Origin: Methanobacteriota archaeon
Lineage (GTDB): Archaea > Thermoplasmatota > Poseidoniia > Poseidoniales > Poseidoniaceae
NCBI GenBank assembly: GCA_014240385.1
Contig: JAAZXA010000068.1
Location: 29,090 to 93,089 of the forward strand
DNA length: 64,000 nucleotides
Reading direction: 5' to 3'
How positions within the stretch are numbered: the stretch's first letter is position 1; the number at the start of each line of letters is the position of its first letter. A model generated the notes under the pieces. That model was not told the DNA's origin. It searched no databases and was given only the letters and a program-made list of their open reading frames with translations. The position numbers and the translations under genes are program-made. Shown piece after piece: positions 9,009-31,581 of the stretch.

Positions 9009-9107
9009 TCAAATGATTTTTCCACATTTCTGACAAGACTGGGGGTGAACCCCTGAATGTCTAGGACATGGGTTTTCGCAAATACAATCTTCTGATTCAT
9101 CAGTCAT
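9009..9107 (-). CDS. Cys-rich micro-protein, 32 aa (not in ORF track)
   Basis: motif start 9105-9107; MTDESEDCICENPCPRHSGVHPQSCQKCGKII; stop abuts next motif. Confidence 0.3.
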   Translation of the reverse strand: MTDESEDCICENPCPRHSGVHPQSCQKCGKII

Positions 9108-9133
9108 GAGCGGTTTAGGATTACGAGTGTATT

Positions 9134-9376
9134 TCAACTCTTGGGGCGAAAATGTGCCTCGACTCCAGCCCAAATCCATACGGTTTCATGATCTCCATAA
9201 GTGACGATTACTATGTCTTGGGGTTTGTACCCGTCTTGCAATAAATGCTCAATGTTTTCGTCTGGTCCGCTTGAGGCGAACATTTTGAATCCAGGGTAGG
9301 GTGGATCTAGTTCATCTCTTGCGTTCCATAAGACGGTTTCACAAAACCAGCCTTCTACTCTATCTATTTCGGTCAT
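9134..9376 (-). CDS. hypothetical protein, 80 aa
   Basis: motif start 9374-9376. Confidence 0.5.
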   Translation of the reverse strand: MTEIDRVEGWFCETVLWNARDELDPPYPGFKMFASSGPDENIEHLLQDGYKPQDIVIVTYGDHETVWIWAGVEAHFRPKS

Positions 9377-9384
9377 GAGCGGTC

Positions 9385-9951
9385 CTATTGTTCAATCCAA
9401 TGCCCATCAGAATCGTATTCCTTTGGGTCAATGGTTGTCTTTTCATAGGCTTTGTGTGGGTTGATGTACCAGAATGATTCTTTGTTGATGTAAATCACGG
9501 CTTGTTCTAGTTGCCTTCCTTTCTCAGAGTTTCCTCGTAAGATTTCTTCCGGCCTCCAGGTATGTCCATGTTCATCAACCATAGAATCATCACCATGTTT
9601 CGAACGGTGGTCTGAAAGTAAATGGTAGCTTAGGTTCACGGCAAATTGCATTTCACTATGCCAACCTGCAGCGTTTGTGCTCCATCCTGCTTCTTTCATT
9701 CTTTCAATCAATTCGATGGTGACGAATTCTGGTAGTTTCTGTCCTTCACCAAAAGTTGGTGATTCCTTATCGTAATCTTTGTTGAAGTTAGGCCAAACAA
9801 TCTTGAGTCTGTTCAAAAACACAAGAGGGTCTCGGCAGTCCCCGCAACCTGTTACTGCACTGACGCTTCCAAGAGTATATCCGCAAGCGAATCCAATTTC
9901 TTCGTCAGTAAAGTTTTCTTTATCCATATAGTATCCTACTAGTAGTGGCAT
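9385..9951 (-). CDS. hypothetical protein, 188 aa
   Basis: motif start 9949-9951. Confidence 0.55.
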   Translation of the reverse strand: MPLLVGYYMDKENFTDEEIGFACGYTLGSVSAVTGCGDCRDPLVFLNRLKIVWPNFNKDYDKESPTFGEGQKLPEFVTIELIERMKEAGWSTNAAGWHSEMQFAVNLSYHLLSDHRSKHGDDSMVDEHGHTWRPEEILRGNSEKGRQLEQAVIYINKESFWYINPHKAYEKTTIDPKEYDSDGHWIEQ

Positions 9952-9958
9952 GAGCGGT

Positions 9959-10222
9959 TTATTCGTGGATCCAGAATACCCTGATTATGTGCGTTTCTGC
10001 ACTTGTTTCATCTGGTTCAAGGTGTATCTTGGTTATTGTCCTCATTCTTTTGGTTCTCTTTGCTCCTGAATATGTTTCAAGTGACTTTTCTTCCATGTGA
10101 ATAATTTTCCAACGGGAATAGATGTCGAGAAGCCCGTGCTTCTTGCTGCTCATCTTTTTCCTTAGAGTGCTTGAAGCTACCTTTCCTCCAATTTTGGGGT
10201 TTTTCAGTGGTTCAATCTTCAT
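9959..10222 (-). CDS. hypothetical protein, 87 aa
   Basis: motif start 10220-10222. Confidence 0.5.
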   Translation of the reverse strand: MKIEPLKNPKIGGKVASSTLRKKMSSKKHGLLDIYSRWKIIHMEEKSLETYSGAKRTKRMRTITKIHLEPDETSAETHIIRVFWIHE

Positions 10223-10409
10223 GAGCGGTTTCTCCTAAATCTATTATTCCAAGTTCGACTGCAGCAAGTTCAATTGCCACATCTAGCGGCAGTATGTTGC
10301 CGCCTACGCAGTGTCTGTTGTGTTCCATGTAAATGGAGACAACTCGTGAACTGAATTCTGGGGTGTGATTTTCTTCAACTAATTTTCTTGCTTTTGTTGC
10401 TAAATCCAT
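10212..10409 (-). CDS. hypothetical protein, 65 aa
   Basis: motif start 10407-10409 (..KKPLM DLATK..). Confidence 0.5.
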   Translation of the reverse strand: MDLATKARKLVEENHTPEFSSRVVSIYMEHNRHCVGGNILPLDVAIELAAVELGIIDLGETAHED

Positions 10410-10422
10410 GAGCGGTTTCTTT

Positions 10423-10593
10423 TCAGTAGTCCCAATACCACCTATCATTGCCTGCCGCCAGATATTCTGCGCCACGCACAGCCGTATCGAACTTTCGTTC
10501 TAATTCGATTATCCGTTCTTCTAGTTTTTGGATTAAGGCGAGTAATTGGGTTTCTCTATCAATATCTTGCTTTTCAGCATGTTTTGATTTCAT
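10423..10593 (-). CDS. hypothetical coiled-coil protein, 56 aa
   Basis: motif start 10591-10593. Confidence 0.45.
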   Translation of the reverse strand: MKSKHAEKQDIDRETQLLALIQKLEERIIELERKFDTAVRGAEYLAAGNDRWYWDY

Positions 10594-10600
10594 GAGCGGT

Positions 10601-10807
10601 TTATTCACTTCGGACGAAGGAGTCGCCTCCCATGATGCCGAATACCCATTTGGGTGGACACCACGAACCGTTTTCTTCTGATTCTGGCTTCAATAGCAAA
10701 TACATCTGCATTGCGCCTACAAGGAAATCGGCTTCACTAACAAGTGAGCCGTTCTTGTGCCTTGCAGACAATACTTCGATGATTTTTTCTTGTATTTCTT
10801 GTTCCAT
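10601..10807 (-). CDS. hypothetical protein, 68 aa
   Basis: motif start 10805-10807. Confidence 0.5.
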   Translation of the reverse strand: MEQEIQEKIIEVLSARHKNGSLVSEADFLVGAMQMYLLLKPESEENGSWCPPKWVFGIMGGDSFVRSE

Positions 10808-10814
10808 GAGCGGT

Positions 10815-11144
10815 TCATTCCGCATTCCAAAGATGGGGGTTTCCTGAACGAATTATCGTCAGTATTTCCCACCTTTGGAATGTTATGTCGTTAATTGTTA
10901 GTTGTTCGGGTATCTTCTTCATGTCTGGCCTGTATGTAGGAACAGTTCCATTTTCCAACCTTGTCCGAGTCATTAGATCTCCAAAGTGTTCTTCTGCGAA
11001 ATTCTTCCTAATCGCACCGTTCCTTGCGGAACGATAGTATAGGGTTTCGTCTGAATCTCGCATTTTTCCCATTAGAGTTGTCCAATATTCAGGATCGTTC
11101 CAGACTTCAATGTCCATTCCGAGTTCTCTGTTAATTAGAGTCAT
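10815..11144 (-). CDS. hypothetical protein, 109 aa
   Basis: motif start 11142-11144. Confidence 0.55.
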   Translation of the reverse strand: MTLINRELGMDIEVWNDPEYWTTLMGKMRDSDETLYYRSARNGAIRKNFAEEHFGDLMTRTRLENGTVPTYRPDMKKIPEQLTINDITFQRWEILTIIRSGNPHLWNAE

Positions 11145-11332
11145 GAGCGGTTAGGCCATTTACATCTCTTCCTTCTGTCCATGTTTCTCTGAACTCAAAC
11201 TCCTACCATCAGGTCGTCCGAACTGCGGATTTGCTCCTGTCTCGTTCAATGTAGGTTCTCAAGCAAAGGCCATTTTGGACTAGGTAATTATGTTCCATTG
11301 GCCGTCCCCCGGCTACTTGTTGACTTTGCGTT

Positions 11333-11356
11333 GGTGCCGTCCAAGGATAGGACACC
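11333..11356. repeat. conserved hairpin element, copy B (GGTGCCGTCCAAGGATAGGACACC)
   Basis: same element as 1952-1975; followed by CCGTGAGCGG (11375-11384) just after stop of upstream gene. Confidence 0.7.
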
Positions 11357-11405
11357 TTTTGCTTATCGTCGTATTGAGCCGTGAGCGGTTGGCCGAAGTT
11401 GATAT

Positions 11406-11702
11406 TCAAGCCATAGGTGGCGAGACAATCTTGTTGCACTTCGCCGGTATCTTCGTGCAGCGCAAAAAGTCAACATTCTTCTCGGGCATCATAAAGGGGG
11501 CTGTCGTATATGTTGTGCGCTTGTATTCCTTCACGCCATCATGTCCGATGATTAATGCTCCCTCTTCGTTCTTATGCTTCTCAAACCATTCTTTGCATTT
11601 TGCTTCCAATGTCTTGATGTCTTCTTCCATTGCTTTCTTAGCTTCTTTCATTTTTGCCAAATGTACGAATTTATCTCGTATTCTTTTAGGTGCTTTTGCC
11701 AT
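11406..11702 (-). CDS. hypothetical lysine-rich protein, 98 aa
   Basis: variant start context CCCCTC-ATG (catgagggg 11700); MAKAPKRIRDKF... Confidence 0.45.
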   Translation of the reverse strand: MAKAPKRIRDKFVHLAKMKEAKKAMEEDIKTLEAKCKEWFEKHKNEEGALIIGHDGVKEYKRTTYTTAPFMMPEKNVDFLRCTKIPAKCNKIVSPPMA

Positions 11703-11785
11703 GAGGGGTGGGAGACAGGTGGATCCTATAGGGATGGGATGCCAACAGGAGGTTGTGAACACCTGTCCCCCGTGAGCGGTTTCTA

Positions 11786-12142
11786 TCACAACTTCATCAA
11801 CTTTCCCCGAAGGGATTCGAATTTGATGATCCTTTTGATAGCGTTTTGAAATTCCTTGTTCAGTTTTTCATCATCTGATTCAGATAGATGGAATTCAGGG
11901 TTTTTCATATTCAGTAATTTGTATCTCATCACAGAATTGACGAGGAATTTCTGTTCTTCTTCACTCAATTCAGACCTTGGGCGGTTGATTTTGTAATTGT
12001 TAATCAGCCGTTCCAGAACAAACATTTGTTCTCTATGGTCGTATGAGCATGTTTCAAGCCATTGTTTTGCTTCGATTCGTAATTGCTTTCGAAGATCAAT
12101 AACCCTTTCAGTTTTTTTCCTCAAGTGGGTTAGGTTCGTCAT
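11786..12142 (-). CDS. hypothetical protein, 118 aa
   Basis: variant motif catgagtggtt, start 12140-12142. Confidence 0.5.
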   Translation of the reverse strand: MTNLTHLRKKTERVIDLRKQLRIEAKQWLETCSYDHREQMFVLERLINNYKINRPRSELSEEEQKFLVNSVMRYKLLNMKNPEFHLSESDDEKLNKEFQNAIKRIIKFESLRGKLMKL

Positions 12143-12419
12143 GAGTGGTTAAGTCCCATACGCACACTTGATATCCACCTGATAGGATTCCTCCTCTAAA
12201 GGCGGAACCAACCTTCTTGAAACGCTTGTCTTTGGACAAACAGTTGCCGAGTTGTTGGCTTGTCGTCCCGTGCCTCATGGTTTCATTGATGTAATCTTGA
12301 ATTGCATAAGTTGGCTGGGGGCCGTTATCTTCTAGGTACTGGACTATCTTGATTCGTATTCTTTGTGTCTTCATGGAAATCACCCTACGGGGGTTCCCTT
12401 GATGAAGTCTTTGCTTCAT
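12108..12419 (-). CDS. putative winged-helix DNA-binding protein, 103 aa
   Basis: motif start 12417-12419 (..KLPLM KQRL..). Confidence 0.45.
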   Translation of the reverse strand: MKQRLHQGNPRRVISMKTQRIRIKIVQYLEDNGPQPTYAIQDYINETMRHGTTSQQLGNCLSKDKRFKKVGSAFRGGILSGGYQVCVWDLTTHDEPNPLEEKN

Positions 12420-12429
12420 GAGCGGTAAT

Positions 12430-12684
12430 TTATGCCAGCATTCCTCCCAGCATCTTATCGAGTTCCATATCATCTTTCACAGTAACCCAATGGGCTGATT
12501 CTGTGCAGTATCTCTTGAGTACATTGGTTGGATAGCCGATTATGTCTACAATCTTCCATTTCGGTCCATCAAAATTTACCCAGAATAGAGCTTCTTCCGC
12601 ATCTATTCTGGTTTTGATGGCTTTTCCCGAAGGGAGTGTGTAGATCATTTGGTTTCCATTTGAGATTGCATACTTTGCTTTCAT
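12430..12684 (-). CDS. hypothetical protein, 84 aa
   Basis: motif start 12682-12684. Confidence 0.5.
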   Translation of the reverse strand: MKAKYAISNGNQMIYTLPSGKAIKTRIDAEEALFWVNFDGPKWKIVDIIGYPTNVLKRYCTESAHWVTVKDDMELDKMLGGMLA

Positions 12685-13075
12685 GAGCGGTGTTTTTTAC
12701 CTCATGGTAATAGATGATGTAATGCTCTGCGTAAAGCATCAATTCACCTTTCTTCCAAGACTCGTATTCATCTTTTGTTGGCTCCATCCATCCTCCGTTT
12801 TGGGCTTCGGAATGGTCTGCAACTGTTTTTGTTGTCTGTAAAGTCCAGCGTTCGAATTCGTCGTCTTCCTTTTGTTTATCTTGATGATAGTCTACGAGTT
12901 CATCGGACAAGTTGTGGTGTGCTTTCAGATATGTAAGCATCGTTGGGATGTTGGGGAAATTTCTCCCAATTGCCCAAGTTGCTCCGCATCCCGTGTACTT
13001 TCCTTCTCCTTCTTCCCATGTGTCTTCGTAAATTTCAGACATTATGCTAGTGCAATGAAATAATTTCTTTTCCAT
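12569..13075 (-). CDS. hypothetical protein, 168 aa (overlaps downstream gene by ~116 nt)
   Basis: motif start 13073-13075 (..IKPLM EKKLFH..). Confidence 0.45.
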   Translation of the reverse strand: MEKKLFHCTSIMSEIYEDTWEEGEGKYTGCGATWAIGRNFPNIPTMLTYLKAHHNLSDELVDYHQDKQKEDDEFERWTLQTTKTVADHSEAQNGGWMEPTKDEYESWKKGELMLYAEHYIIYYHEVKNTAHESKVCNLKWKPNDLHTPFGKSHQNQNRCGRSSILGKF

Positions 13076-13082
13076 GAGCGGT

Positions 13083-13268
13083 TTAATCGTATTCAAGTTC
13101 GTAATAGCCATGTTCTTTGATCTTCTCGAAGATGATTTTCAACTTCTTGACTTCTCTGCGAACATCGTGATAATCTTGTTTGGATAGAATACGACCATAG
13201 TACATTCTTGCTACTACTTCGAAGAGTATCTCAAAAGCCTCTTCTTCCGTAGGTATTTCTTCATCCAT
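13083..13268 (-). CDS. hypothetical protein, 61 aa
   Basis: motif start 13266-13268. Confidence 0.5.
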   Translation of the reverse strand: MDEEIPTEEEAFEILFEVVARMYYGRILSKQDYHDVRREVKKLKIIFEKIKEHGYYELEYD

Positions 13269-13280
13269 GAGCGGTTCCCA

Positions 13281-13733
13281 TCAAATGTGGGGGGACTGTG
13301 TATCTCCATCGATTGGCATCGGTTGAATGCTAATCCATTTCTCAGTCCTGTAATGCATGTGGTCGTATAGCCATTCTTTCAATGGCGTAATACCTTTGCC
13401 GTAGACTGAAAGGGAATATTGTTGCAAGATAAATCGCTTGCGTTCCTCTGCAGCCTTGAGGTCTGGCAGTAATTCGTTCCAGTAGCCAGCCTTCGCATCA
13501 CCCCATTCGAGGATGTAACCTCCAAATGGTTTGTCGATACGCCAGGCTACAATTCGAGTCCACATATTCCCAAATTCATGTTCGTTGTTTTCAATAGTAA
13601 ATATCACTGGACCCTCGACATCGTGGCCTCCTTCTCTTAGTGTTCGAAGTTCTGTATCTCGCAGATTGAGGTTTTCGTCTGGTGTTCCTGTGTATTCGTT
13701 TATTTCCATCGGTTTATTTGGTCTTTTAACCAT
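13281..13733 (-). CDS. hypothetical protein, 150 aa
   Basis: motif start 13731-13733. Confidence 0.55.
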   Translation of the reverse strand: MVKRPNKPMEINEYTGTPDENLNLRDTELRTLREGGHDVEGPVIFTIENNEHEFGNMWTRIVAWRIDKPFGGYILEWGDAKAGYWNELLPDLKAAEERKRFILQQYSLSVYGKGITPLKEWLYDHMHYRTEKWISIQPMPIDGDTQSPHI

Positions 13734-13740
13734 GAGCGGT

Positions 13741-13923
13741 TCAATAACATCTACATATAATGCATGTAGTTGAAAAATATTCGACTACTGGGCATTCAGG
13801 TAAGCATCTTTGCTCATCTGCGTTTAGATTGCCCCAGCAGTGTTCTTCTGCATATTCTAGGACTGTTTCGTAGTCATATCCCTCATCTCCATTAATGATG
13901 AGCCAGTCGTCTTTGTTTTGCAT
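13741..13923 (-). CDS. Cys-rich protein, 60 aa
   Basis: motif start 13921-13923 (..MKPLM QNKDDW..). Confidence 0.5.
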   Translation of the reverse strand: MQNKDDWLIINGDEGYDYETVLEYAEEHCWGNLNADEQRCLPECPVVEYFSTTCIICRCY

Positions 13924-13931
13924 GAGCGGTT

Positions 13932-14006
13932 TCATTCGTAGGCACAATCGCATGTAGGATATCCTTCATCGTCGTACTCTTCTTCGCAGATTAGGCACCA
14001 GACCAT
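13932..14006 (-). CDS. Cys-rich micro-protein, 24 aa (not in ORF track)
   Basis: motif start 14004-14006; MVWCLICEEEYDDEGYPTCDCAYE; stop abuts next ACCGCTCATG. Confidence 0.25.
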   Translation of the reverse strand: MVWCLICEEEYDDEGYPTCDCAYE

Positions 14007-14015
14007 GAGCGGTGT

Positions 14016-15149
14016 TCAACTTGTCGAGACCCGATGAAAATTGGTAATCAGTCCTGCTTGAGAACTCCCTGTTCGAGCGTTCCAAGCCTTCTCTAATATC
14101 TTCTTATTCATTGAATGGTGGTAACTTGTCCTGTTCCATTGTTTCATGATGTGCTTGTAAAGCCCATCCGGGTCGTCATTGTAAGTTGAGAGTTCAAGAG
14201 CATCTTGATCCTGTTCCCAGACATTGTGTAATCCCCTGGCACTAGTTCCCCCAGCACCATCGGAACGAAGTAAATCCATCATTTCCTTGAAGGTAAATCC
14301 TGCAGCCTTACTGAATGGGTATGAATCTGTATTCCAGACCTTCTTCATGTGGTTTGCTGCCCAAGGCTTGTGTAGGTTGTTTTTCTTTCCAACTTTGATA
14401 AATCTTCCAGATTCACAATCCATAAGTTGCCGTAGCATGGCATTGAGTCTCCAACTAGTTGCATCTACGCATTTAGCACCAAGCATTGATGCTACCTTGG
14501 TTGCGTTCATTCCACCTGCGCCAAGAAGGAAGAAGTCTTTGTCTGCTTCTCTTAATTCTTGACTGGTGTTTAGAACGACATTCCAAAGTTTCGCCTTTGA
14601 GACGATGGTAGTTTCATTCTTGATGTCGGCATTTCCAATGCGATCCATTACTCTAAAAGTTGATTGAGCCAAATTACTACCGTAGCCAACCATAATGTCG
14701 TTGTCTATGTCGTATTGGTTCAAATGATGGATTGCTTCTTCTGCGTTCCTTCCGTGAATTACGGGTATTGTCTGCGGAATCTCTTCGTGCATCTCGCTAA
14801 ACCAGTCGCAACTTGTCTGTTGCCGTTCCACTACCTCATTTTCGGTGAGGCCTGTGAATCTCGGTATCGGGAAATCTGCTGCAATGATGATGTCATTGTC
14901 TTTGATTCCGATTCTCCTATGGTTTGCGACTAGATCTTCAACTTTGAATGTTGAAGCTAGTTCGGGATTCTGTAGGAAATTGAATCCTCCTGAATCCTTA
15001 GCGACTTGATGCTTTGTTGTGAACTCTTGATGGCTAAAGCCATCTCCGATTCTATCATTTATTGTGATGAGCATACTGTCGGTCAATTCCCTAACATCGT
15101 AGGGTCGTTTACCGATGTATTCTGCGTTTTCACTTGTAAAATTCTGCAT
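14016..15149 (-). CDS. tRNA-guanine transglycosylase-like protein (DpdA-like 7-deazaguanine DNA transglycosylase candidate)
   Basis: VAKDSGGFNFLQN matches TGT family DSGGFQ catalytic motif; FLLGAGG; 377 aa; motif start 15147-15149. Confidence 0.55.
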   Translation of the reverse strand: MQNFTSENAEYIGKRPYDVRELTDSMLITINDRIGDGFSHQEFTTKHQVAKDSGGFNFLQNPELASTFKVEDLVANHRRIGIKDNDIIIAADFPIPRFTGLTENEVVERQQTSCDWFSEMHEEIPQTIPVIHGRNAEEAIHHLNQYDIDNDIMVGYGSNLAQSTFRVMDRIGNADIKNETTIVSKAKLWNVVLNTSQELREADKDFFLLGAGGMNATKVASMLGAKCVDATSWRLNAMLRQLMDCESGRFIKVGKKNNLHKPWAANHMKKVWNTDSYPFSKAAGFTFKEMMDLLRSDGAGGTSARGLHNVWEQDQDALELSTYNDDPDGLYKHIMKQWNRTSYHHSMNKKILEKAWNARTGSSQAGLITNFHRVSTS

Positions 15150-15157
15150 GAGCGGTA

Positions 15158-15550: not shown

Positions 15551-15576
15551 GAGCGGTGCGGGGTGGTTCGACTACT

Positions 15577-15912: not shown

Positions 15913-15919
15913 GAGCGGT

Positions 15920-17191
15920 TCATTCCAGTATTTTCTGCATCTCCTTTTCGAGCAAAGCATCATTTCTTCGTGCTATGTGCTCTTTCATGGAGTATCGCAG
16001 ACCGTCATACTTGAGGCTGTTCAGCGTAGCCTTGCCAAGATTGGCAACAGGCTTACGCTCATACCAGTCTTTTCGCTTCATCATCTCGCCTGTAACGGGA
16101 TGAGGAACGATTTCATTTCCTTCTGGGCTTTCAGCGAGTTTCAACCATTGGAAGGGCATCAATTTCCATGCGCCTATCTTCTCAGTATATGGCTTGAATT
16201 CTTTCTTGTAGCCCGAAAGTCCTGATTTCTTATCGGGTTCTGGTGTCATCTTGTAAACATGAGTACAGTTAGGATCTTCGCACCATCCACTAGCCATAGG
16301 AGTCCTATGGTAGCCTCGGTTGCATCTACCTCCCTTGTTGAGAGGCATTCCATCTCTGTGCCATTTCTCATGCTTGTCTTCTGAGTAGAAGCGTTCTTCG
16401 ATTCCTAGAGCTTCTTGCAGCCCTATACCATCAGCGTCAATCAAACGGTCAACTTCCCATTCTTTGCAGAATGGACACCACATGCATGAACTCTTCTGGA
16501 CTGGGGAGCCATCTCCCCTGTAATCCCATCCAAGTATCTGCAACATGGCGAGGCATTCTTTCCTATTCATGTCCAATTCCTGGAGAGGATAGGAGTATTC
16601 ATGCCCTTTGACTTTGTTTTGACCGTGGTTTGCTGTGAATCTGTCAGTTCTTCCACCTTCGTTGGCTTCGATGCCAAGCATCCACCATTTTTCCGATACA
16701 GTATGGTCTCCAAAGGTTTCTTCTGCCCATTTCTGTTGGACATTTCCCTTGAATCTCATGCTGCAGGTATGTTGTTGTCCTCCAATTACTGGAAGCATTC
16801 CTCCATCCATCAACCATTCATAGATCTTGTAGACCTTTTCTCCCTTGGTGTAATCATCCTTCTCTGATTTGGGCAAACTTCTCCATTCTTCATAGCGGAG
16901 TTCTTCGCCTGTATCATTGTGATGATAAACGGGGATTGTGTGTCTAACGGTAACTACTGGCAAGCCTACTTCTGCGCATCGCTTCTCTGCGTATGCAAGG
17001 TTTTCGTAGGTTTCAGGCCATTCGCTACCGGGATCCGAGAATACGGCTGCAACGAATGGAGGAAACTTTTCGTCTAGTTCTTGTCGAGTTATCCCCAACG
17101 CTTCGGCTGAGGTGTCTCTGTCTAAGTGCATGGCTAGAAGGGCTGTTGAATCAACCCCTACGCCAAATGATAACAAGTCTATTCGTTTCAT
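15920..17191 (-). CDS. PP-loop-like / PAPS-reductase-like domain protein, 423 aa
   Basis: N-terminal LLSFGVGVDSTALLA resembles SxGxDS PP-loop; motif start 17189-17191. Confidence 0.4.
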   Translation of the reverse strand: MKRIDLLSFGVGVDSTALLAMHLDRDTSAEALGITRQELDEKFPPFVAAVFSDPGSEWPETYENLAYAEKRCAEVGLPVVTVRHTIPVYHHNDTGEELRYEEWRSLPKSEKDDYTKGEKVYKIYEWLMDGGMLPVIGGQQHTCSMRFKGNVQQKWAEETFGDHTVSEKWWMLGIEANEGGRTDRFTANHGQNKVKGHEYSYPLQELDMNRKECLAMLQILGWDYRGDGSPVQKSSCMWCPFCKEWEVDRLIDADGIGLQEALGIEERFYSEDKHEKWHRDGMPLNKGGRCNRGYHRTPMASGWCEDPNCTHVYKMTPEPDKKSGLSGYKKEFKPYTEKIGAWKLMPFQWLKLAESPEGNEIVPHPVTGEMMKRKDWYERKPVANLGKATLNSLKYDGLRYSMKEHIARRNDALLEKEMQKILE

Positions 17192-17198
17192 GAGCGGT

Positions 17199-19491: not shown

Positions 19492-19716
19492 TCAGCAATG
19501 GACATAGCCCTTGCGAACCTTTTCCTCTACTTTCTTCTCGATGAAGCTGAGAGCTTCTTCTGCAGTTCCGAAGTTTCGGGGTTTGGCCTTTTGGCCTTTG
19601 CTGCCGATTCTCCCCCATGATACCCACACAATATCTTCGAGTGTGGTTTCATTGTCTGCTTGCCAGAACTTGTGGGAGTTCTCTTCTTCATCATGGTATT
19701 CCATGTATACTCGCAT
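19492..19716 (-). CDS. WGR-domain protein, 74 aa
   Basis: KFWQAD...WVSWGRIGSKGQ...FGTAEEALSFIEKKVEEKVRKGY fits WGR signature; motif start 19714-19716. Confidence 0.5.
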   Translation of the reverse strand: MRVYMEYHDEEENSHKFWQADNETTLEDIVWVSWGRIGSKGQKAKPRNFGTAEEALSFIEKKVEEKVRKGYVHC

Positions 19717-19768
19717 GAGCGGTGTCGATTCTCATTATTACTGAGTTGCAATAGTGCCATGAGCGGGC

Positions 19769-23137: not shown

Positions 23138-23160
23138 GAGCGGTGTTTTGAGTCTAAACT

Positions 23161-23349: not shown

Positions 23350-23366
23350 GAGCGGTAGTCGTCCCG

Positions 23367-24705: not shown

Positions 24706-24717
24706 GAGCGGTGCGTG

Positions 24718-25596
24718 TTAAACGCGTCTTTTGATAGCCTCATTAACTGACTTCAACCTTTCAAGGAAAGTGTCGAGGTTTTCGATTGTGTCGTCAAATT
24801 CGTTCACAATCTCGATAATTTTCCTCTCCATCTTTTTCTCCTTTACGAAGATGCTTACCATTTCAGGGGGGTCTTCACTTTGCTGGACTTGTGCTGGCAC
24901 AGGTCCTGTGGATTTCTTTCCCTTTTCTTTGCGGTGTTCAGTAAACGGTTCTATTCCGTCTTCATCTACCCAAATGGTTTCCTTCTCGGTATGCAGGATA
25001 TCCGTTTCAATGAGTCCTTCGTACATCGGCTTTTCATCGTCGTATTCTTCGATTAACTCATTTTGTAGTTCGGATTCTAATACATCCACGAAGTTTGAAT
25101 CTAATTCACGAACTTCTGTGGTTTCTTCGGTTTCCTCTGCATCTGGAACGGGTTCGGAGCAATCGAAATTACTTGAGATGTAGTCTAGCATTGCTTGTTT
25201 GGGGTCTTTCCCCTCAGCAATTGCTTTTCCTGCTACATCGAAAATATTCTCTGAATTCTCTAGTACCTGTTCGTTGTCCTTGACCCATTCCAATGCCAAT
25301 ACTTCTTGCATTAATTCTACAATGTCGGCTGGAGGGTCTTCGGGCTCTTCGGTAGTAGGTTCCTCTTCGGTTTCAGTCTCAACCTTGACTTTTGGTTCTG
25401 AAAACTTGGCTGTAAGGTAGGACGCCATTTCAAATCTCCTCTTCTGGGATGAATCGATGTCGTTAAACTGTCCTCCATCGATTGCATTGTTGAGGTAATC
25501 TTCGGCGGCTACCATGTGCCGGTCTCTCCACCCTTCGTCTGTTAGGTCGGTTAATTTGTTTATCACATAGTTCATATCATCTATGATCTCTTGCAT
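24718..25596 (-). CDS. highly acidic protein, 292 aa
   Basis: motif start 25594-25596; ETEEEPTTEEPEDPPAD. Confidence 0.55.
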   Translation of the reverse strand: MQEIIDDMNYVINKLTDLTDEGWRDRHMVAAEDYLNNAIDGGQFNDIDSSQKRRFEMASYLTAKFSEPKVKVETETEEEPTTEEPEDPPADIVELMQEVLALEWVKDNEQVLENSENIFDVAGKAIAEGKDPKQAMLDYISSNFDCSEPVPDAEETEETTEVRELDSNFVDVLESELQNELIEEYDDEKPMYEGLIETDILHTEKETIWVDEDGIEPFTEHRKEKGKKSTGPVPAQVQQSEDPPEMVSIFVKEKKMERKIIEIVNEFDDTIENLDTFLERLKSVNEAIKRRV

Positions 25597-25606
25597 GAGC
25601 GGTTCA

Positions 25607-25813
25607 TTATTCCATTATCCTCACGAAACTTCCGAATGGTTTGCGGCATTTAGCGTGAATCCAAAGGTTCTTGGTGATGCTCAATTGGCTTCCGGGCTTA
25701 TTCTTCATTGAAATTGCCCTTTCTCCTTTTGTCATCAATTCTCCACACCATACGCAAATTTGTTGTTCTGTTTGTGAGGTTCTCCATACAATTCTGTCGT
25801 GTATTTGGGTCAT
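25607..25813 (-). CDS. Zn-binding protein, 68 aa
   Basis: motif start 25811-25813 (..HRQPLM TQIHDR..); CVWCGE...HAKC. Confidence 0.5.
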   Translation of the reverse strand: MTQIHDRIVWRTSQTEQQICVWCGELMTKGERAISMKNKPGSQLSITKNLWIHAKCRKPFGSFVRIME

Positions 25814-25823
25814 GAGCGGTTGT

Positions 25824-26096
25824 CTATGGCAATGGTGCAACCATTTGAGCCATAGGTGGGCTTGGCGGAACAATCTCAATTAATCCTTCAATGCCTGTTG
25901 CAAGGGCTAAGAGGACCTTTCGGTGGATGGTTAAGCGGTGGATTAATTCGTCCAATACATCTGCGCCTTCCAACTCTGCTATGTTTTCCGCCAGACCATT
26001 AGTTGGATTCCACCTGTCTTGGTGCTTTTCCATTAGGTCTGCTTCGTATTTCACTAGGTCAATTCCTAGTAATTCGTGTTGATATTCTTCTAACAT
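25824..26096 (-). CDS. hypothetical protein, 90 aa
   Basis: motif start 26094-26096. Confidence 0.5.
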   Translation of the reverse strand: MLEEYQHELLGIDLVKYEADLMEKHQDRWNPTNGLAENIAELEGADVLDELIHRLTIHRKVLLALATGIEGLIEIVPPSPPMAQMVAPLP

Positions 26097-26274
26097 GAGC
26101 GGTTCTTTTCATTCCAGCGGGGGATGTTTCGTCACCTTGAACTTGAGCCGACCCCCATCACTTGATTCTTGCCTACAAGCAGTGGGGAGGTATCTTTCAG
26201 TGGTGGGCGAGTATCGAGCCCCTTGTTTCAAAGAACCCGGTTATATCATTGGTTGTCTCCTTTCGAGTTTCTTC

Positions 26275-26298
26275 GGTGTCGTCCAAGGATTGGACACC
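26275..26298. repeat. conserved hairpin element, copy C
   Basis: GGTGTCGTCCAAGGATTGGACACC; followed by CCGTGAGCGG (26327-26336) directly after stop of gene 26343..26711. Confidence 0.7.
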
Positions 26299-26342
26299 TA
26301 CTTTCTCTACTTTGGACTGCAATAAGTCCCCGTGAGCGGTAT

Positions 26343-26711
26343 TCACAAATCTCTGTCCAGCAGTAAGGACCTTAATTCACTCCAACAGTCTTGGATTGCT
26401 CCAGGGTCGGTATGTCCTTCAATTGGCCTTACTTCTGCTAAGATTGTGCTGATTAGGTCTCTTACTCGTTCATAATCTACAGTTTTGATTTCATTGTATG
26501 CATCGGCAATCTCATTTTGAATCGACTCATCGATAAACGATGATGTTGCGTCCATAGCGAGCGTTTGCAATATTATCTCTGCTGCTGATTCGGGTAAAAT
26601 CCAAATCGTTTTGGCGTGTCTTTTGCCGAGGTCGATGTAATCGACTCCTTCCTCTAGTTCATCTAGTCTTTTGGCAAATTCTTTTCCATCTACAAGATCT
26701 TCTCTTGGCAT
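26343..26711 (-). CDS. hypothetical protein, 122 aa
   Basis: motif start 26709-26711 (catgagcggatt; ..CNPLM PREDLV..). Confidence 0.5.
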   Translation of the reverse strand: MPREDLVDGKEFAKRLDELEEGVDYIDLGKRHAKTIWILPESAAEIILQTLAMDATSSFIDESIQNEIADAYNEIKTVDYERVRDLISTILAEVRPIEGHTDPGAIQDCWSELRSLLLDRDL

Positions 26712-26753
26712 GAGCGGATTACACAAGTTAGGTGTTTCAAACTGGGGCATCGT

Positions 26754-27338
26754 TCATCCTCCACGGATGCACTCCAGTTCGCACCTTTCCCATGCTTTCT
26801 CTGAGATTCCGAGTTCCATAGCCTTCTTTCGGCTCTTTTCCTCATCCATCTCCCATTCATCTTCGTTGTGCCATACGATGTAATCTGACATGTTTCCGTC
26901 TTCTACTTCTTCTCCGTTTACCCACCAACCCCAGAAATCCATGCCGGCTTCCATAAAGGAAGCATCGACTTCGAATCCGTTGTTGTATAGGTGTTCATAG
27001 ATTGGGAAGGTAGGACTCCATGCTGAATCAAATCTGATTTCCAGTATGTTTTCGTCTGGGTCTAAATGGCAATGAGTCCGTCCGTAGTTGTTTTCGTCAA
27101 CTTCTGCGGGTATGGCCCATTTGGTTCCCCAATTGTTCACATTCCAATTTCTCCACCAAGTCGGGTCGCTATGAAGCTCCTGCTGTGATGTTTCATATTC
27201 ATCACGGTAAGCAGGTGTGTCCGGCGGTGGGATTAGGAATTGGAACAATCCAGTTTCCTTTGTTGCTTTTTCTATTTCAATTAATTTCTGTCTATCATCG
27301 TGTTTGATGATGACATGGTTGTTTGTCCAATTAGGCAT
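26754..27338 (-). CDS. hypothetical protein, 194 aa
   Basis: motif start 27336-27338. Confidence 0.55.
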   Translation of the reverse strand: MPNWTNNHVIIKHDDRQKLIEIEKATKETGLFQFLIPPPDTPAYRDEYETSQQELHSDPTWWRNWNVNNWGTKWAIPAEVDENNYGRTHCHLDPDENILEIRFDSAWSPTFPIYEHLYNNGFEVDASFMEAGMDFWGWWVNGEEVEDGNMSDYIVWHNEDEWEMDEEKSRKKAMELGISEKAWERCELECIRGG

Positions 27339-27346
27339 GAGCGGTT

Positions 27347-27799
27347 CTAAATGATGAGTTCTGCAATTTTGATAATTTCATGTTGTAAATCAACTTGATT
27401 GTTGATTTCCAAGACTTCTTCCTCGTGAATTATTCGGTCAGTCTTTGCTTTGAGGGCTTGAAGGGATTGGTCTGCTAAAACCAAACCAATCTTCAAAGCC
27501 TCAACTTCTGGGAATCCATATTCCTTCAAGTAGCCTGTAATCCAAACGACACTTCGGTTGAGGTCGTGATTTAGAGAATTGCAATAAACCATATCTGAGT
27601 ATTGTTCTAGGGATAGGTTCAAAGCTTCTCTTTTTGACAGACAGACATCTTTCATGATGAGTTCACCATCAATTATGTCATCTTCCTCTGTGTGCATGAT
27701 TTTCTCATTCCAGTAATCTTGGTAGTTTTCTTCGCCTTTTTCGTGTAAGCCGATCCAAGCGCCATACCATTCATCGATTTCTCCGGTTTCGTTTTCCAT
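27347..27799 (-). CDS. hypothetical protein, 150 aa
   Basis: motif start 27797-27799, inside 45-bp repeat copy 2. Confidence 0.55.
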   Translation of the reverse strand: MENETGEIDEWYGAWIGLHEKGEENYQDYWNEKIMHTEEDDIIDGELIMKDVCLSKREALNLSLEQYSDMVYCNSLNHDLNRSVVWITGYLKEYGFPEVEALKIGLVLADQSLQALKAKTDRIIHEEEVLEINNQVDLQHEIIKIAELII

Positions 27800-27840
27800 G
27801 AGCGGTGTATTTGGATCAGTTATTCTAGATCTTCGGTTGG
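27796..27840. repeat. 45-bp gene-junction repeat, copy 2
   Basis: see 22901-22945. Confidence 0.75.
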
Positions 27841-28146
27841 TTCGATTTCTACGATGTAGATTTCGATGCCTTTGGCCTCCAACCAGTCTAATGTGTCGTC
27901 AAAACTCCGATGGTCTTGTTTGAACTCTTCTGTCAAATCAACCATCATGCCTTGCATACATTCATGTGCAATTGCATCAGAGTTGAACGACCAATCCATA
28001 TCTCTCCAACCCATTCCGAATCCAGAACCACCATCGGTCATGTATTCGTCATATTTGTTGGCTATCTCATCCATTCGTTTGCTACGGTTGCTGAAAGTCT
28101 CGATGTTTCCATCGTCCTTCCATCTGAGCATTACTCTGTATTCCAT
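27820..28146 (-). CDS. hypothetical protein, 108 aa
   Basis: motif start 28144-28146. Confidence 0.5.
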   Translation of the reverse strand: MEYRVMLRWKDDGNIETFSNRSKRMDEIANKYDEYMTDGGSGFGMGWRDMDWSFNSDAIAHECMQGMMVDLTEEFKQDHRSFDDTLDWLEAKGIEIYIVEIEPTEDLE

Positions 28147-28155
28147 GAGCGGTTT

Positions 28156-28443
28156 TTAGAACTCGTTTGTAGTTCCTGTTTTGAGTAATGTGATGATTAT
28201 CCGATTAACGGCAATCATCCTATTTGTAATCGCCTTATCGTCAAAATTCTCAAAGTAAGCCATGAGCATTTCATAGTGAGGCATGTTCCATTGATGTGTC
28301 GGTAAAATAAGTTTTTCAACTGCTTCTACATCTGTTGGTTTCAAATTGTCTGATTGTCTGAGGATAGTTGAAGGGAGTTGTCCTGTTTGGTCGTTGAAAC
28401 CCCATGTTGCTTCTAACATCTTTCTAATCCATTTATCTTCCAT
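28156..28443 (-). CDS. hypothetical protein, 95 aa
   Basis: motif start 28441-28443. Confidence 0.5.
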   Translation of the reverse strand: MEDKWIRKMLEATWGFNDQTGQLPSTILRQSDNLKPTDVEAVEKLILPTHQWNMPHYEMLMAYFENFDDKAITNRMIAVNRIIITLLKTGTTNEF

Positions 28444-28530
28444 GAGCGGTTAATCCTCTTCGTATTCTTCGAAGATGTATTCTTCTGTTTCAATGCGTAA
28501 TATCAATGTCGGCATGAGCGGCTCAAACCA

Positions 28531-28797
28531 TCAAGATGGTTTGTAGCAGTTTGATTCGTTTGTTGTTATTCTGATTGTTGAATCTGATATTGACTCGAGC
28601 AATACATCTCCATCATCCTTGACCTTAATTACTATGCAGAAATCTCCGGGCTCGATTATCTCGTCCTCGCTATTTGTTTCTGCAGCATAAAGGCTCACGA
28701 AGTCTCCGACTTCGAAGTTGTTTTGTGAAGTTGTGTAGTTCTGTTCGTATGCGTCTTCAATCAGTTTCTTTAACCGGGTTGCTACTCTTCTTCCCAT
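28531..28797 (-). CDS. hypothetical protein, 88 aa
   Basis: motif start 28795-28797. Confidence 0.5.
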   Translation of the reverse strand: MGRRVATRLKKLIEDAYEQNYTTSQNNFEVGDFVSLYAAETNSEDEIIEPGDFCIVIKVKDDGDVLLESISDSTIRITTNESNCYKPS

Positions 28798-28806
28798 GAG
28801 CGGTGT

Positions 28807-29073
28807 TCATTCTTCTTCAAGATCATCCCAGTGGATAAAATCTCTTTTCATTGTCCTTCTTTTGAATTTAGGGGTGTTTTCTACAAATGGGTCGGGTATT
28901 GTATTTGTCTCTTCTGGTTTGCCAAAAATATAGGCGAACCAGAAATACATCAATATCCCCATAAGAATTATCGTATAGGGGTCTTGCAGCCATTCGTAGA
29001 TGAGTGCGCATAGCAATCCTGTGCAAATTGCTGCTAGTGCGTTTCTTACATTCAATTCAATGTATTGTTCCAT
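28807..29073 (-). CDS. membrane protein, 88 aa
   Basis: motif start 29071-29073; two predicted TM helices. Confidence 0.55.
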   Translation of the reverse strand: MEQYIELNVRNALAAICTGLLCALIYEWLQDPYTIILMGILMYFWFAYIFGKPEETNTIPDPFVENTPKFKRRTMKRDFIHWDDLEEE

Positions 29074-29310
29074 GAGCGGTTTGTACCGGCATACTCTTGC
29101 TTAGACTGTTCGCTGGACAGTTGGCCTGTGAATCTAACTGCAACACTCCGTCTTCCCGTTTCTGTCTCCGTAGATACAATTGAGGGAAGCTGCGGGTTTG
29201 TCAATTGACTCGATGGCATCGTGGCCGAAGCCGCAGGATGCCCTAAGCAGTATCTTACCGTAGGTACTTACCCGACTCGCCAATTAGGGGTCACACCATC
29301 CATGACTGTT

Positions 29311-29334
29311 GGTGCCGTCCAAGGATTGGACACC
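29311..29334. repeat. conserved hairpin element, copy D
   Basis: GGTGCCGTCCAAGGATTGGACACC; followed by TCGTGAGCGG (29369-29378) abutting stop of gene 29379..29585. Confidence 0.7.
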
Positions 29335-29378
29335 GTAAGCGTATTGGTTCTGCCCCGGTTAGGTCTGTCGTGAGCGGT

Positions 29379-29585
29379 TTAATCATTTCTAACAAGGTTG
29401 TAGACATATTCGAATAAATCTCTTCCTTGTTCTGTGAAGCCAGATGGATCATCGTCGTTTTCAACGATGTTTCCTTCTGCATCTAGGTTGTATAGTAACT
29501 TGCGTTCAATAAGTCCTTCATCAATTAAATATTCGATTACTGAATCTCCTGCATCGCAAGCTTCTCCTATGTTGTTTTCTTCCAT
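29379..29585 (-). CDS. hypothetical acidic protein, 68 aa
   Basis: motif start 29583-29585. Confidence 0.5.
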   Translation of the reverse strand: MEENNIGEACDAGDSVIEYLIDEGLIERKLLYNLDAEGNIVENDDDPSGFTEQGRDLFEYVYNLVRND

Positions 29586-29592
29586 GAGCGGT

Positions 29593-30459
29593 TTATGTCC
29601 AAAGACTCCTCGTCATCCTCCATATCCCTGCTTTTGCGAAGTCAGGGTGTTTTTCTATCCCTACTGCGTGTCGCCCTGTGAGCATCGCAGCCAATCCTAG
29701 GCTGTATGATCCTGCAAACGGGTCGAGCACTACATCTCCAGGATAAGTGGAGAAGCGAATAAGTTCAATCAAGAGTTCAACAGGCTTTTCTGTCTGGTGA
29801 ACCTTCTTCCTACCCATCATTCTAGAGTGGGTTTGAACATCTGCTATGCTGTTATTGATTCTTCTGCGCTTCCCTTTCGAGAAGAACAGAATTAGTTCGT
29901 GTCGTGGCCGACCATTGTAGCCAAGTGATATGACTTTCTTATCCCATACCCATTGGCTATTGAATGTGAAACCTGCGGCTTCTGCAATCTTGATTTGATT
30001 GTAGATGTAGTCGTAGGTGTCGTGCTTTGCTGCAGGCATGAAGCAAAAGAAGTGTCCATTGGGCTTCAAGACCCTAAGCATCTCCGAATACAAATCCGAA
30101 TCGATGTCTTTGGTCTCAAAATCCCATCCCTTCTTGAGATTCCTTGCTCGGGTAGTTCCCGTCTGCATTTGAGCATTCAAGATTGAATACGGAGGATCTG
30201 TGATGATAGCATCGAAGCTGTTATCTTCTAACTTTGCTAATTCATCCCAACTGTCTCCTTCAATCAAAGCGCATTGTGTGTCGCCAACTGTGGCGATGTA
30301 TATGCCTCTTGATACTCTGCGAAAGCACTTGTCTATGTTTTCATTGAGTCTTCCACGAATTGTTGTTTCCTTTTCATCAGGCAATGCTTCGTATATCTCC
30401 TTGAGATTCGATTCATTGTCTGCTAGAAATTCAACCAATCTTTCTTTCAATGTTTTCAT
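29593..30459 (-). CDS. DNA methyltransferase (beta-class N6A/N4C, DPPY with C-terminal FxGxG)
   Basis: AIITDPPYS motif IV and VVLDPFAGSYSLGLAA motif I; motif start 30457-30459 (..TEPLM KTLKERL..); 288 aa. Confidence 0.65.
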   Translation of the reverse strand: MKTLKERLVEFLADNESNLKEIYEALPDEKETTIRGRLNENIDKCFRRVSRGIYIATVGDTQCALIEGDSWDELAKLEDNSFDAIITDPPYSILNAQMQTGTTRARNLKKGWDFETKDIDSDLYSEMLRVLKPNGHFFCFMPAAKHDTYDYIYNQIKIAEAAGFTFNSQWVWDKKVISLGYNGRPRHELILFFSKGKRRRINNSIADVQTHSRMMGRKKVHQTEKPVELLIELIRFSTYPGDVVLDPFAGSYSLGLAAMLTGRHAVGIEKHPDFAKAGIWRMTRSLWT

Positions 30460-30480
30460 GAGCGGTTCAGTTTGGGTCAA

Positions 30481-30774
30481 CTAATCTTCAGTTTGATGAG
30501 ACCAGTTTTCGGGTTGTTTGAGCCAAAGTCCAAAAAGCACCTGGGCTCCGTAGTAGGTTCCGAAAGTTTCCAAATCCGATTCCTCGTAGCCGTCTTTTGA
30601 TTCGTGAATGACATAGAACAATTGTTCCATGGTTAGATCTTCTGGTATTTTCCATTCATCTCCGTAATCGTCATTACATTCCAACAAATCGTCGTTTGCG
30701 ATTTTATCTGAGGGTGCTTCCTTAACGATTCCCGATATTGGGTTCCAGAAAGTTCCTGATATTGTTTTAGTCAT
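30481..30774 (-). CDS. hypothetical protein, 97 aa
   Basis: motif start 30772-30774. Confidence 0.5.
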   Translation of the reverse strand: MTKTISGTFWNPISGIVKEAPSDKIANDDLLECNDDYGDEWKIPEDLTMEQLFYVIHESKDGYEESDLETFGTYYGAQVLFGLWLKQPENWSHQTED

Positions 30775-30783
30775 GAGCGGTGT

Positions 30784-30858
30784 TCAAATTTCGTGACAAC
30801 AAGCCATGCACTTGTTTCTGCACATGGCGTATAGTCTGCATACTCTGCATTGTTCCAT
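30784..30858 (-). CDS. Cys-rich micro-protein, 24 aa (not in ORF track)
   Basis: motif start 30856-30858; MEQCRVCRLYAMCRNKCMACCHEI (8 Cys). Confidence 0.3.
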   Translation of the reverse strand: MEQCRVCRLYAMCRNKCMACCHEI

Positions 30859-30865
30859 GAGCGGT

Positions 30866-31207
30866 TTATTCACCATGATGCCATTTGAGAGCCTTTTCAT
30901 CCCAAGGCCCCCAATGCAGGTGATTTAGTACATTCTCAATTACTTCTTCATAGGTGTATTCAATAATCTCATCGGGATTGATTTTTCCTCGTCTGAAGTA
31001 AATCTCCCATGCCATCTTCACCATTCCATTTGGCCCCGATGGGTCAAAAACCCATTCGGTTAGCCATTCATCTGTGAATCTGACAAAGGCGTGGCCGTAT
31101 CGAATTCCTTCGATTTCTCCCTCGCCTGTTACTTCGGCGTGGACTAATCGGTATTCTGGATTCTCTTGAGCCAATTGAGCTGCTAATCGATAGCATTCTC
31201 CTTTCAT
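30866..31207 (-). CDS. hypothetical protein, 113 aa
   Basis: motif start 31205-31207. Confidence 0.5.
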   Translation of the reverse strand: MKGECYRLAAQLAQENPEYRLVHAEVTGEGEIEGIRYGHAFVRFTDEWLTEWVFDPSGPNGMVKMAWEIYFRRGKINPDEIIEYTYEEVIENVLNHLHWGPWDEKALKWHHGE

Positions 31208-31214
31208 GAGCGGT

Positions 31215-31502
31215 TCAGAATGGAAGATCTAATGCAATCTGCTTTGCGTGTTCTGGTGCATGTTTCGCTATTACTTCCCAAAATGGGCTTTCTGTAATTG
31301 CGTCTTTGCCTCCCGTATCACTCCAAGTTGGAGGAAGGGTTGTTTGGTTTCCATTCTTGTCGAGAAGCCATGCTTGAATGAAATAACTTGTTTCGCCTGT
31401 TATTCCCCCACGGTCAAATCCGTAGGCGAGGTTCCAGTTTTGCTGTTCTTCTATGTTTTTCAATACATTCAGGTTCTCTGCATATCCTAGATATCTAGTC
31501 AT
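31215..31502 (-). CDS. hypothetical protein, 95 aa
   Basis: motif start 31500-31502 (..TNEPLM TRYLGY..). Confidence 0.5.
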   Translation of the reverse strand: MTRYLGYAENLNVLKNIEEQQNWNLAYGFDRGGITGETSYFIQAWLLDKNGNQTTLPPTWSDTGGKDAITESPFWEVIAKHAPEHAKQIALDLPF

Positions 31503-31509
31503 GAGCGGT

Positions 31510-31581
31510 TCATTGGTTCGGGCATTTGCCGCATCCATTGTCTGGACAATCGTTGCATGTCCTTGCTTCATCTTCTTCCAT
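31510..31581 (-). CDS. Cys-rich micro-protein, 23 aa (not in ORF track)
   Basis: motif start 31579-31581; MEEDEARTCNDCPDNGCGKCPNQ. Confidence 0.3.
   Translation of the reverse strand: MEEDEARTCNDCPDNGCGKCPNQ

Follow-up and report, generated by a model that had tools for sequence, protein, structure and literature searches.

The 64,000-nucleotide (nt) stretch analysed here (the window; positions 29,090 to 93,089 of contig JAAZXA010000068.1) carries over its first 39 kilobases (kb) a block of small genes whose starts directly abut a heptamer, and within this block lie five open reading frames (ORFs) of 21 to 32 codons, called here micro-genes A to E. Counted over the window, the strings CATGAGCGGT and CATGAGCGG occur on the plus strand 82 and 87 times, every copy within positions 150-39078, and the reverse orientation is represented by 0 copies of the former and 1 copy of the latter; by arithmetic, chance alone would give ~0.24 copies of a 9-mer per strand. 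Because the orientation of the motif is almost wholly one-sided, the genes are placed on the minus strand, where the motif over 1-39.1 kb reads CCGCTCATG (n = 87) and ACCGCTCATG (n = 82) and the gene starts read (A)CCGCTC-ATG. Translation from each ATG shows that 87 of 87 heptamer-ATG copies open an ORF and that the preceding stop usually lies 6-12 nt ahead of the next ATG. The field and the micro-genes, with sizes in amino acids (aa) and the gap between each stop and the next ATG, are as follows.

150-39078, minus strand: field of 87 (A)CCGCTC-ATG gene starts, from motif counts and translation; the context that defines the micro-genes
9009-9107, minus strand: micro-gene A, 32 aa, MTDESEDCICENPCPRHSGVHPQSCQKCGKII, 5 Cys and 2 His; gap 6 nt; heptamer ACCGCTC at 9108-9114
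13932-14006, minus strand: micro-gene B, 24 aa, MVWCLICEEEYDDEGYPTCDCAYE, CxxC-x12-CxC; gap 8 nt
30784-30858, minus strand: micro-gene C, 24 aa, MEQCRVCRLYAMCRNKCMACCHEI, 6 Cys and 1 His; gap 9 nt
31510-31581, minus strand: micro-gene D, 23 aa, MEEDEARTCNDCPDNGCGKCPNQ, CxxC-x4-CxxC; gap 7 nt
28450-28515, minus strand: micro-gene E, 21 aa, acidic and Cys-free, MPTLILRIETEEYIFEEYEED; gap 6 nt; variant heptamer GCCGCTC

The stops of all five fall 6-9 nt ahead of the next heptamer-ATG, as they do in the bona fide neighbour genes. An earlier, sequence-only reading of this DNA had proposed a hidden family of Cys-rich micro-ORFs, each ending at the next motif. That description of the frames holds for A, B, C, D, and E and fails for a further candidate at 6594-6758, which reads 59 nt past the next start. 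Its cysteine counts need correction for 9009-9107 (5, not 6) and 30784-30858 (6, not 8), and the CxxC-x4-CxxC pattern that it gave for 31510-31581 is present. The word family does not fit, as A-E have no significant mutual similarity and their Cys spacings all differ; an all-versus-all blastp-short comparison gave a sole match, B with D, at E 0.02 in a five-sequence database.

Framing of this kind is seldom produced by chance. With random interiors of coding-strand composition, the probability that a frame stops 6-12 nt before the next ATG is 0.030-0.075 per interval, depending on its length, and real off-frame sequence gives the same framing at 0.03-0.05. Seven heptamer intervals are less than 140 nt long, and five of them are framed in this way, an outcome with a binomial probability of ~6e-6; the exceptions are the remnant-like 6594-6758 and 19717-19760. 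The phase of the cysteine codons points the same way. Summed over A, B, C, and D, TGY codons number 19 in the proposed frame and 2 in the other two frames (A 5/0/0, B 4/0/1, C 6/1/0, D 4/0/0), and nucleotide shuffling gives P values of 8e-4, 2e-3, <1e-5, and 1e-5, respectively. This phase weighs most for C and D because other frames are open there too, a second one in the case of D; B and E have stops in both other frames. Codon usage, scored as a log-likelihood ratio (LLR), favours the proposed frame of B (+7.4 versus -12 and -15 in the other frames) and of E (+8.6), and weakly that of D (+1.7). RNA structure signal is absent from all five intervals, with fold z scores of -0.7 to +0.8 against shuffled controls.

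Relatives of the element were found largely in metagenomes. Megablast of 12 kb against GenBank phages gave no match, and tblastn of a 951-aa and a 423-aa protein gave nothing, or merely distant PAPS-reductase matches. Motif-pair scans of IMG/VR returned one true relative, the 127.6-kb contig L005. The motif-pair pattern was also run on genomes of the Genome Taxonomy Database, where there were chance matches among the matches listed (tandem-repeat proteins and Nocardia/Dactylosporangium repeats), and these were rejected. For a metagenome scan the 423-aa PAPS-reductase-like protein (window 15920-17191) was aligned with its L005 homologue, and with this alignment as query the scan recovered 73 loci, ~46 of them marine relatives with the same gene architecture, several on contigs of 118-129 kb.

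In these relatives micro-gene A has five homologues of 30-35 aa (L027, L028, L029, L041, and L050), all heptamer-led and all with a stop 6-7 nt before the next start. Residues C8, C10, P13, P15, R16, H17, S18, G19, H21, P22, C25, and C28 are invariant in the family. By Nei-Gojobori counts the window copy differs from its relatives at a proportion of 0.73-0.84 of synonymous sites (pS) and 0.18-0.29 of non-synonymous sites (pN), and most of the changes that separate the three closest copies from one another are synonymous. The excess of synonymous change that the sequence-only reading had proposed to look for is thus seen for A; homologues to compare were not found for B, C, and D, and E has a weak match only. 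A search of a 5.8-billion-protein collection with the 56-aa in-frame extension of A as its query gave no candidate for the family.

The flanking genes of the A family differ from genome to genome, and the gene downstream encodes a 279-aa, a 112-aa, a C5-methyltransferase-like 235-aa, or a 102-aa protein. Because the family persists between varying neighbours, we take it to be a cassette in its own right rather than a leader peptide. Like upstream ORFs (uORFs), the micro-genes are very short and lie directly ahead of a longer gene on one transcript; unlike uORFs, the A family has no conserved partner gene. A leader peptide or uORF was rejected for this family on its four different downstream genes and for C because it is unchanged while its neighbours change in the strain L012.

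Two other micro-ORF families in the relatives bear similar marks of purifying selection. These are a 27-28-aa Cys-free family, MTPTF...GEFIGE (pS 0.31 versus pN 0.09), and a 39-aa CxxC...CxxC family (pS 0.24 versus pN 0.10). The ..GEF(I/V)GE tail of the former is also found at the C-terminus of a 67-70-aa CxxC protein of other relatives, and its GGAGAA-TGA codons set a GGAG ~11 nt ahead of the next ATG.

L005:6648-6731, L026:3676, L030:5194, L033:5747; L016:5522, L017:3470: loci of the GEF(I/V)GE tail sequence

Over the window and its relatives the cysteine fraction climbs as protein length drops, from 1.4% at >=80 aa to 2.7-4.3% at 60-80 aa, 3.7% at 40-60 aa, and 7.6-15% below 40 aa. Such a trend is what one would expect if the smallest proteins fold by metal ligation.

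We consider it likely that A-E are genuine autonomous cistrons in a dense, co-oriented accessory ("early-like") block of an uncultured, ~128-kb marine virus-like element. As far as can be judged from sequence, the micro-ORFs are very probably real genes: comparison with relatives proves it for A, and the framing together with the phase of the Cys codons strongly indicates it for B, C, and D. Each would be read off a polycistronic minus-strand transcript, with initiation at the ATG abutting ACCGCTC and termination 6-9 nt before the next heptamer-ATG, as in the ~80 longer genes. This arrangement of starts and stops can be read directly from the DNA; that the frames are translated we infer. The products of A-D would be peptides of 23-32 residues, for which metal coordination is the one plausible means of stabilisation, and that of E an acidic, Cys-free peptide. 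The five would be separate cassettes, at the short end of the continuous range of small Cys-rich proteins that this lineage encodes. Their most likely role, by analogy with the small proteins of viral early regions, could be regulation, takeover, or anti-defence through binding to macromolecules of host or virus, which is speculative.

Several observations weigh against this interpretation. Neither ~0.6 Mb of related contigs nor the IMG/VR motif-pair scans yielded a homologue of B, C, or D, and strain contigs of 98.8-99.9% identity, found by exact-protein look-ups, contain zero substitutions inside these three frames and are hence uninformative. The near-identical contigs come from samples labelled HARO18-2 and BUSC20-1, and relatives are present at Tara stations. 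As no homologues were found, the case for B, C, and D is one of framing and Cys codon phase only. Micro-gene C is open in all three frames, and in strain L012 a 395-aa methyltransferase ORF passes through it in another frame. The codon-usage LLR is neutral to negative for A (-2.0), which is rich in Cys, His, and Pro, and for C (-1.3), a score that is unreliable on Cys-rich frames; the best-scoring frame of C has no start, and we interpret it as an artefact of reading TGY as GYN. Pfam has no match for A-E, a sequence search of the Protein Data Bank (PDB) returned nothing significant for B, C, or D, and AlphaFold2, run on the single sequence of A, gave a low-confidence model that tells nothing of the fold (pLDDT 58). 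Ligand spacing is the sole basis on which we infer that A-D are mini zinc knuckles or fingers stabilised by metal at CxxC, CxC, or HxxxH. Finally, the heptamer is fallible as a start marker, as 6594-6758, the copies without an ATG, and the copy at 19760 attest. Further scans of IMG/VR gave only an unrelated phage sharing a homologous domain for the 113-aa gene between C and D, and no match for the 377-aa gene adjoining B. Micro-gene E has weak similarity (a common EYIFE) to a 33-aa heptamer-led ORF at L035:1430 in a clade-B relative.

The micro-ORFs might instead be translated only to pass ribosomes between cistrons by termination-reinitiation, in which case selection would act on the integrity of the ORF and not on the peptide. 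The highly uniform spacing from stop to ATG (6-11 nt at 342 of 500 junctions in clade A of the relatives) would suit such a relay, as would the lack of conserved homologues of B, C, and D. However, genes may abut without any relay, and the first genes of runs, which lie behind non-coding gaps of 130-370 nt, carry the heptamer too, which argues that initiation is independent of an upstream terminating ribosome. The frame-specific Cys enrichment, together with the purifying selection on A and on the two other micro families, shows constraint on the peptide itself, and we regard a role as mere relays as improbable.

A second possibility is that the frames are functionless now, leftovers of cassette recombination or of gene decay between heptamers. 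Cassettes do come and go in these genomes: gains and losses between 98.8%-identical strains have their breakpoints at heptamers. In L012, a strain of that identity, the heptamer upstream of C is the exact insertion point of a ~1.07-kb N6/N4-methyltransferase cassette (L012:3350-4537 versus window 30459-30866), and the 97-aa gene at 30481-30774 downstream of C is missing; C itself is 100% identical. The window also holds what appear to be remnants, namely the candidate at 6594-6758, which resembles the N-terminal stub of a ~200-aa family, and the relic heptamer at 19717-19760. Yet these are precisely the ones that are not well-formed, whereas the stops of A-E are correctly placed. A-D have in-frame Cys codons, A-E have no similarity to longer proteins, and A is kept as a unit across relatives. 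Decay is therefore an explanation that we doubt for A-E, with a chance about as small as that of ribosome relays.

It is least probable, and indeed scarcely credible, that the intervals belong to something else, be it an alternative-frame extension of a neighbour or a structured regulatory RNA: gene callers do give a 118-aa ORF at 31215-31571 that covers D as a 23-codon N-terminal extension of the downstream gene, and other frames are open over C and D, but the fold energies of the five intervals cannot be told from those of shuffles, and the sole diverged homologue of the gene downstream of D (P0002, 92 aa) begins MTRY at its own heptamer-ATG with no extension, which removes the alternative-frame reading of D. 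The methyltransferase frame of L012 likewise scores as non-coding across C (LLR -7.7), and its read-through is probably the result of a frameshift near the 3' end, because an out-of-frame TGA lies 18 nt before the ATG of C. A match of D in L033 (CGKCPNQ) was dismissed as a chance likeness to the C-terminus of a 311-aa protein.

With A-E taken as cistrons of their own, attention turns to the signal that marks them. The information content of the start context is confined to positions -7 to -1 and the ATG, and a purine-rich, Shine-Dalgarno-like signal is absent upstream. That the heptamer-ATG is the true start follows from the orthologues of the 423-aa protein, whose N-termini are near-identical and begin at the heptamer-ATG irrespective of which heptamer the clade uses. 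Among the marine relatives (loci L015-L060 and L208-L209) the heptamer is clade-specific. One group has ACCGCTC with the variants TCCGCTC, GCCGCTC, and ATCGCTC, a second clade has ACTGACC, and a third group has ATTGAAC, ATTAAAC, ATTTGAC, ATTTAAC, ATTTTAC, and ACTGAAC; one further homologue has ACTACCC. In the variants that bear TGA or TAA, the stop of the preceding gene often lies inside the heptamer, leaving a gap of 2 nt. Outside the field, the genes at 42486-63511, on both strands, have GGAGG/GGTGA-type Shine-Dalgarno-like leaders instead of the heptamer, so the genome has at least two start-context classes. Three genes at 39422, 40305, and 40778 (minus strand) have C/A-rich leaders that are of neither type.

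The sequence-only reading overstated its case in taking the motif to mark real starts alone. ACCGCTC occurs without an ATG, followed by ACA or ACG, at the ends of gene runs and elsewhere (2004, 26333, 29371, 35417, 41263, 11382, and 11773, minus strand). Those at 2004, 26333, 29371, 35417, and 41263 lie directly past a stop and open a stretch that has no heptamer-led gene, and so the heptamer is not purely a start signal. A conserved hairpin, GGTGTCCAATCCTTGGACGACACC, of the form GGTGTCCAATCCTTGGACG(A/G)CACC, lies ~35-45 nt downstream of ATG-less heptamers at run ends.

~1960-1985, ~26280-26305, and ~29310-29335, minus strand: conserved hairpin in three non-coding gaps, resembling a terminator or processing element

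At 35127-35417 (minus strand) a ~93-aa ORF has its ATG 9 nt away from the heptamer (ACCGCTC-ACATCAAAT-ATG) and its stop correctly before the next heptamer. Some genes therefore have a non-abutting arrangement.

Because the heptamer replaces the Shine-Dalgarno signal, varies by clade, occurs without an ATG at run ends, and matches cassette breakpoints, one may entertain, as a tentative proposal, that it is a private gene-junction code of this lineage, invariant at the ATG of nearly all accessory genes, and that the micro-genes are visible only through it. Searches of the literature for the heptamer string, and of papers on magroviruses, gave no description of it. Other viral start and junction signals include the late TAAATG initiator of poxviruses, the transcription-regulating sequences of nidoviruses, and MazF-type cleavage that yields leaderless mRNAs. 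Like these, the heptamer is short, lineage-specific, located at gene junctions or starts, and distinct from the host Shine-Dalgarno signal, but none of them has its sequence or its genomic setting, and the analogy concerns the heptamer only. Conceivably, though less likely than not, a virus-encoded reader co-evolves with the heptamer, whether an endoribonuclease that trims cistrons to leaderless mRNAs, a dedicated initiation factor, or a guide RNA. Were this true, each cassette would be autonomously expressible and could be freely shuffled, down to genes of 21 codons.

The ligand motifs of the predicted peptides are CIC, CQKC, and HxxxH in A, CLIC and CDC in B, CRVC with four more Cys in C, and CNDC and CGKC in D, only some of which match a CPxCG consensus. 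By analogy, their closest functional counterparts are the C(P)XCG one-domain zinc-finger micro-proteins of Haloferax volcanii, such as HVO_0758 and HVO_2753 (PMC6562870, PMC10716476, PMC11241148). Those proteins too are stand-alone, very small, organised round two Cys pairs, numerous per genome, and often missed in annotation or difficult to annotate, and the two Cys pairs of D (CNDC...CGKC) and of B recall them most directly. They are, however, mostly 40-70 aa in length with C(P)XCG knuckles, whereas the micro-genes here encode 23-32 aa and match the consensus in part. There is also no homology, a PDB match to an HVO_2753-like chain having an E value of 8.5. Measurements of zinc binding exist for the Haloferax proteins, several of which are reported to bind no zinc (PMC11241148), whereas binding is predicted here from ligand spacing.

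In A, residues 16-31 (RHSGVHPQSCQKCGKI) recall the HxxxH-linker-CxxC-GK junction by which tandem C2H2 fingers are joined, and the best PDB matches are ZNF568, Aart, and PRDM9. No single stretch of these matches passes threshold, the E value being a sum over repeats. Assignment of A as a C2H2 finger was rejected, its spacing being C-x-C-x6-H-x3-H versus C-x2-4-C-x12-H-x3-5-H, with no Pfam match. On this sequence comparison, A shows resemblance to the C2H2 fingers, not membership among them.

Small zinc-finger, ribbon-helix-helix, and zinc-ribbon proteins are typical of the early or accessory regions of archaeal viruses and phages. The block described here is like such regions in being dense, one-directional, and made of small ORFans that are rich in CxxC, with a ribbon-helix-helix-like protein at 5096-5251 and fast gene turnover among relatives. 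What sets the micro-genes apart is that they lie below the usual gene-calling thresholds and that each is flagged by an invariant heptamer abutting the ATG. A-D would be new small viral zinc-finger-like proteins of an already known sort; what is unusual is a heptamer that abuts the start and differs from clade to clade. Small ORFs of prokaryotes have been catalogued, for example in PMC11364881. Proteins below ~30 aa are nearly invisible to annotation, and the heptamer tag reveals their starts without ribosome profiling; with its clade-specific variants it could be used to re-annotate the whole marine viral lineage. An uncultured virus here yields a clean set of 21-32-aa peptides small enough for chemical synthesis, several of which would, if zinc binding is true, be among the smallest autonomous metal-binding proteins.

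Beside A-E, the field contains longer candidates and one relic copy of the heptamer.

6594-6758, minus strand: candidate F, 54 aa; passes the next heptamer, with a 59-nt overlap with the gene at 6362-6652
1609-1773, minus strand: 54-aa protein, CxxC...CxxC, 5 Cys; well-formed, gap 7 nt
5096-5251, minus strand: 51-aa protein; well-formed, gap 8 nt
19717-19760, minus strand: relic heptamer copy CCCGCTC-ATG, 44 nt upstream of the real start at 19716, with no in-frame stop between

The N-terminal part of F resembles the N-termini of 201-203-aa proteins in the clade-B relatives L039 and L040, with a common CxPHDVK...EI. This likeness and the lack of a proper stop lead us to read F as a stub, probably a truncated gene remnant and not a tidy micro-gene. 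The 54-aa and 51-aa frames at 1609-1773 and 5096-5251 are present, as the sequence-only reading had them, as well-formed heptamer ORFs. The only Pfam match of the former is Zn_ribbon_Elf1, which is weak (E 0.012, 16.1 bits versus a cut-off of 29.8), and the protein is plausibly a zinc ribbon. The latter matches RHH_1 at E 5.5e-4 and 20.2 bits, against a gathering cut-off of 20.5, and is a probable ribbon-helix-helix (CopG) protein. From the ATG at 19760 an ORF of 77 aa runs out of frame across the gene at 19492-19716, with TAATAATGA in another frame; the copy resembles a scar left behind when a cassette was lost or frameshifted.

The remainder of the window bears on the nature of the element.

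41038-41168, minus strand: tRNA gene with encoded CCA and a ~57-nt insertion in the anticodon arm; Rfam 48.9 bits, missed by ARAGORN
51205-51948, plus strand: match to Arf-family small GTPases, E 1.6e-5
42486-43694, plus strand: weak TFIIB-repeat match, below cut-off
57564-58385, minus strand: serine recombinase, PHROG integrase, E 1e-67
40800-40850, 41195-41240, and 42050-42090: GGGCC-TAC-GGCCC hairpin unit, three copies, a non-coding repeat
42230-42290, 42360-42420, and 42490-42520: ~60-nt unit ending ...CCACAGGGGGTATATGAATAGGCC, two full copies and the start of a third, a non-coding repeat

The insertion in the tRNA gene suggests an intron of archaeal or eukaryal type. Homologues of the TFIIB-like protein supplied neither names nor domains and pointed to no host, and the virion-protein matches in the window are weak. 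The tRNA insertion, the Arf GTPase match, the TFIIB match, the serine recombinase, and these weak virion-protein matches together suggest that the element is an archaeal tailed virus. The GTPase match, the TFIIB match, and the recombinase adjoin tRNA-Arg(GCG) and tRNA-Lys(CUU). Both types of repeat sit in the ORF-poor 40.8-42.5 kb, and the ~60-nt unit is TATA-box-like, possibly an archaeal-type promoter.

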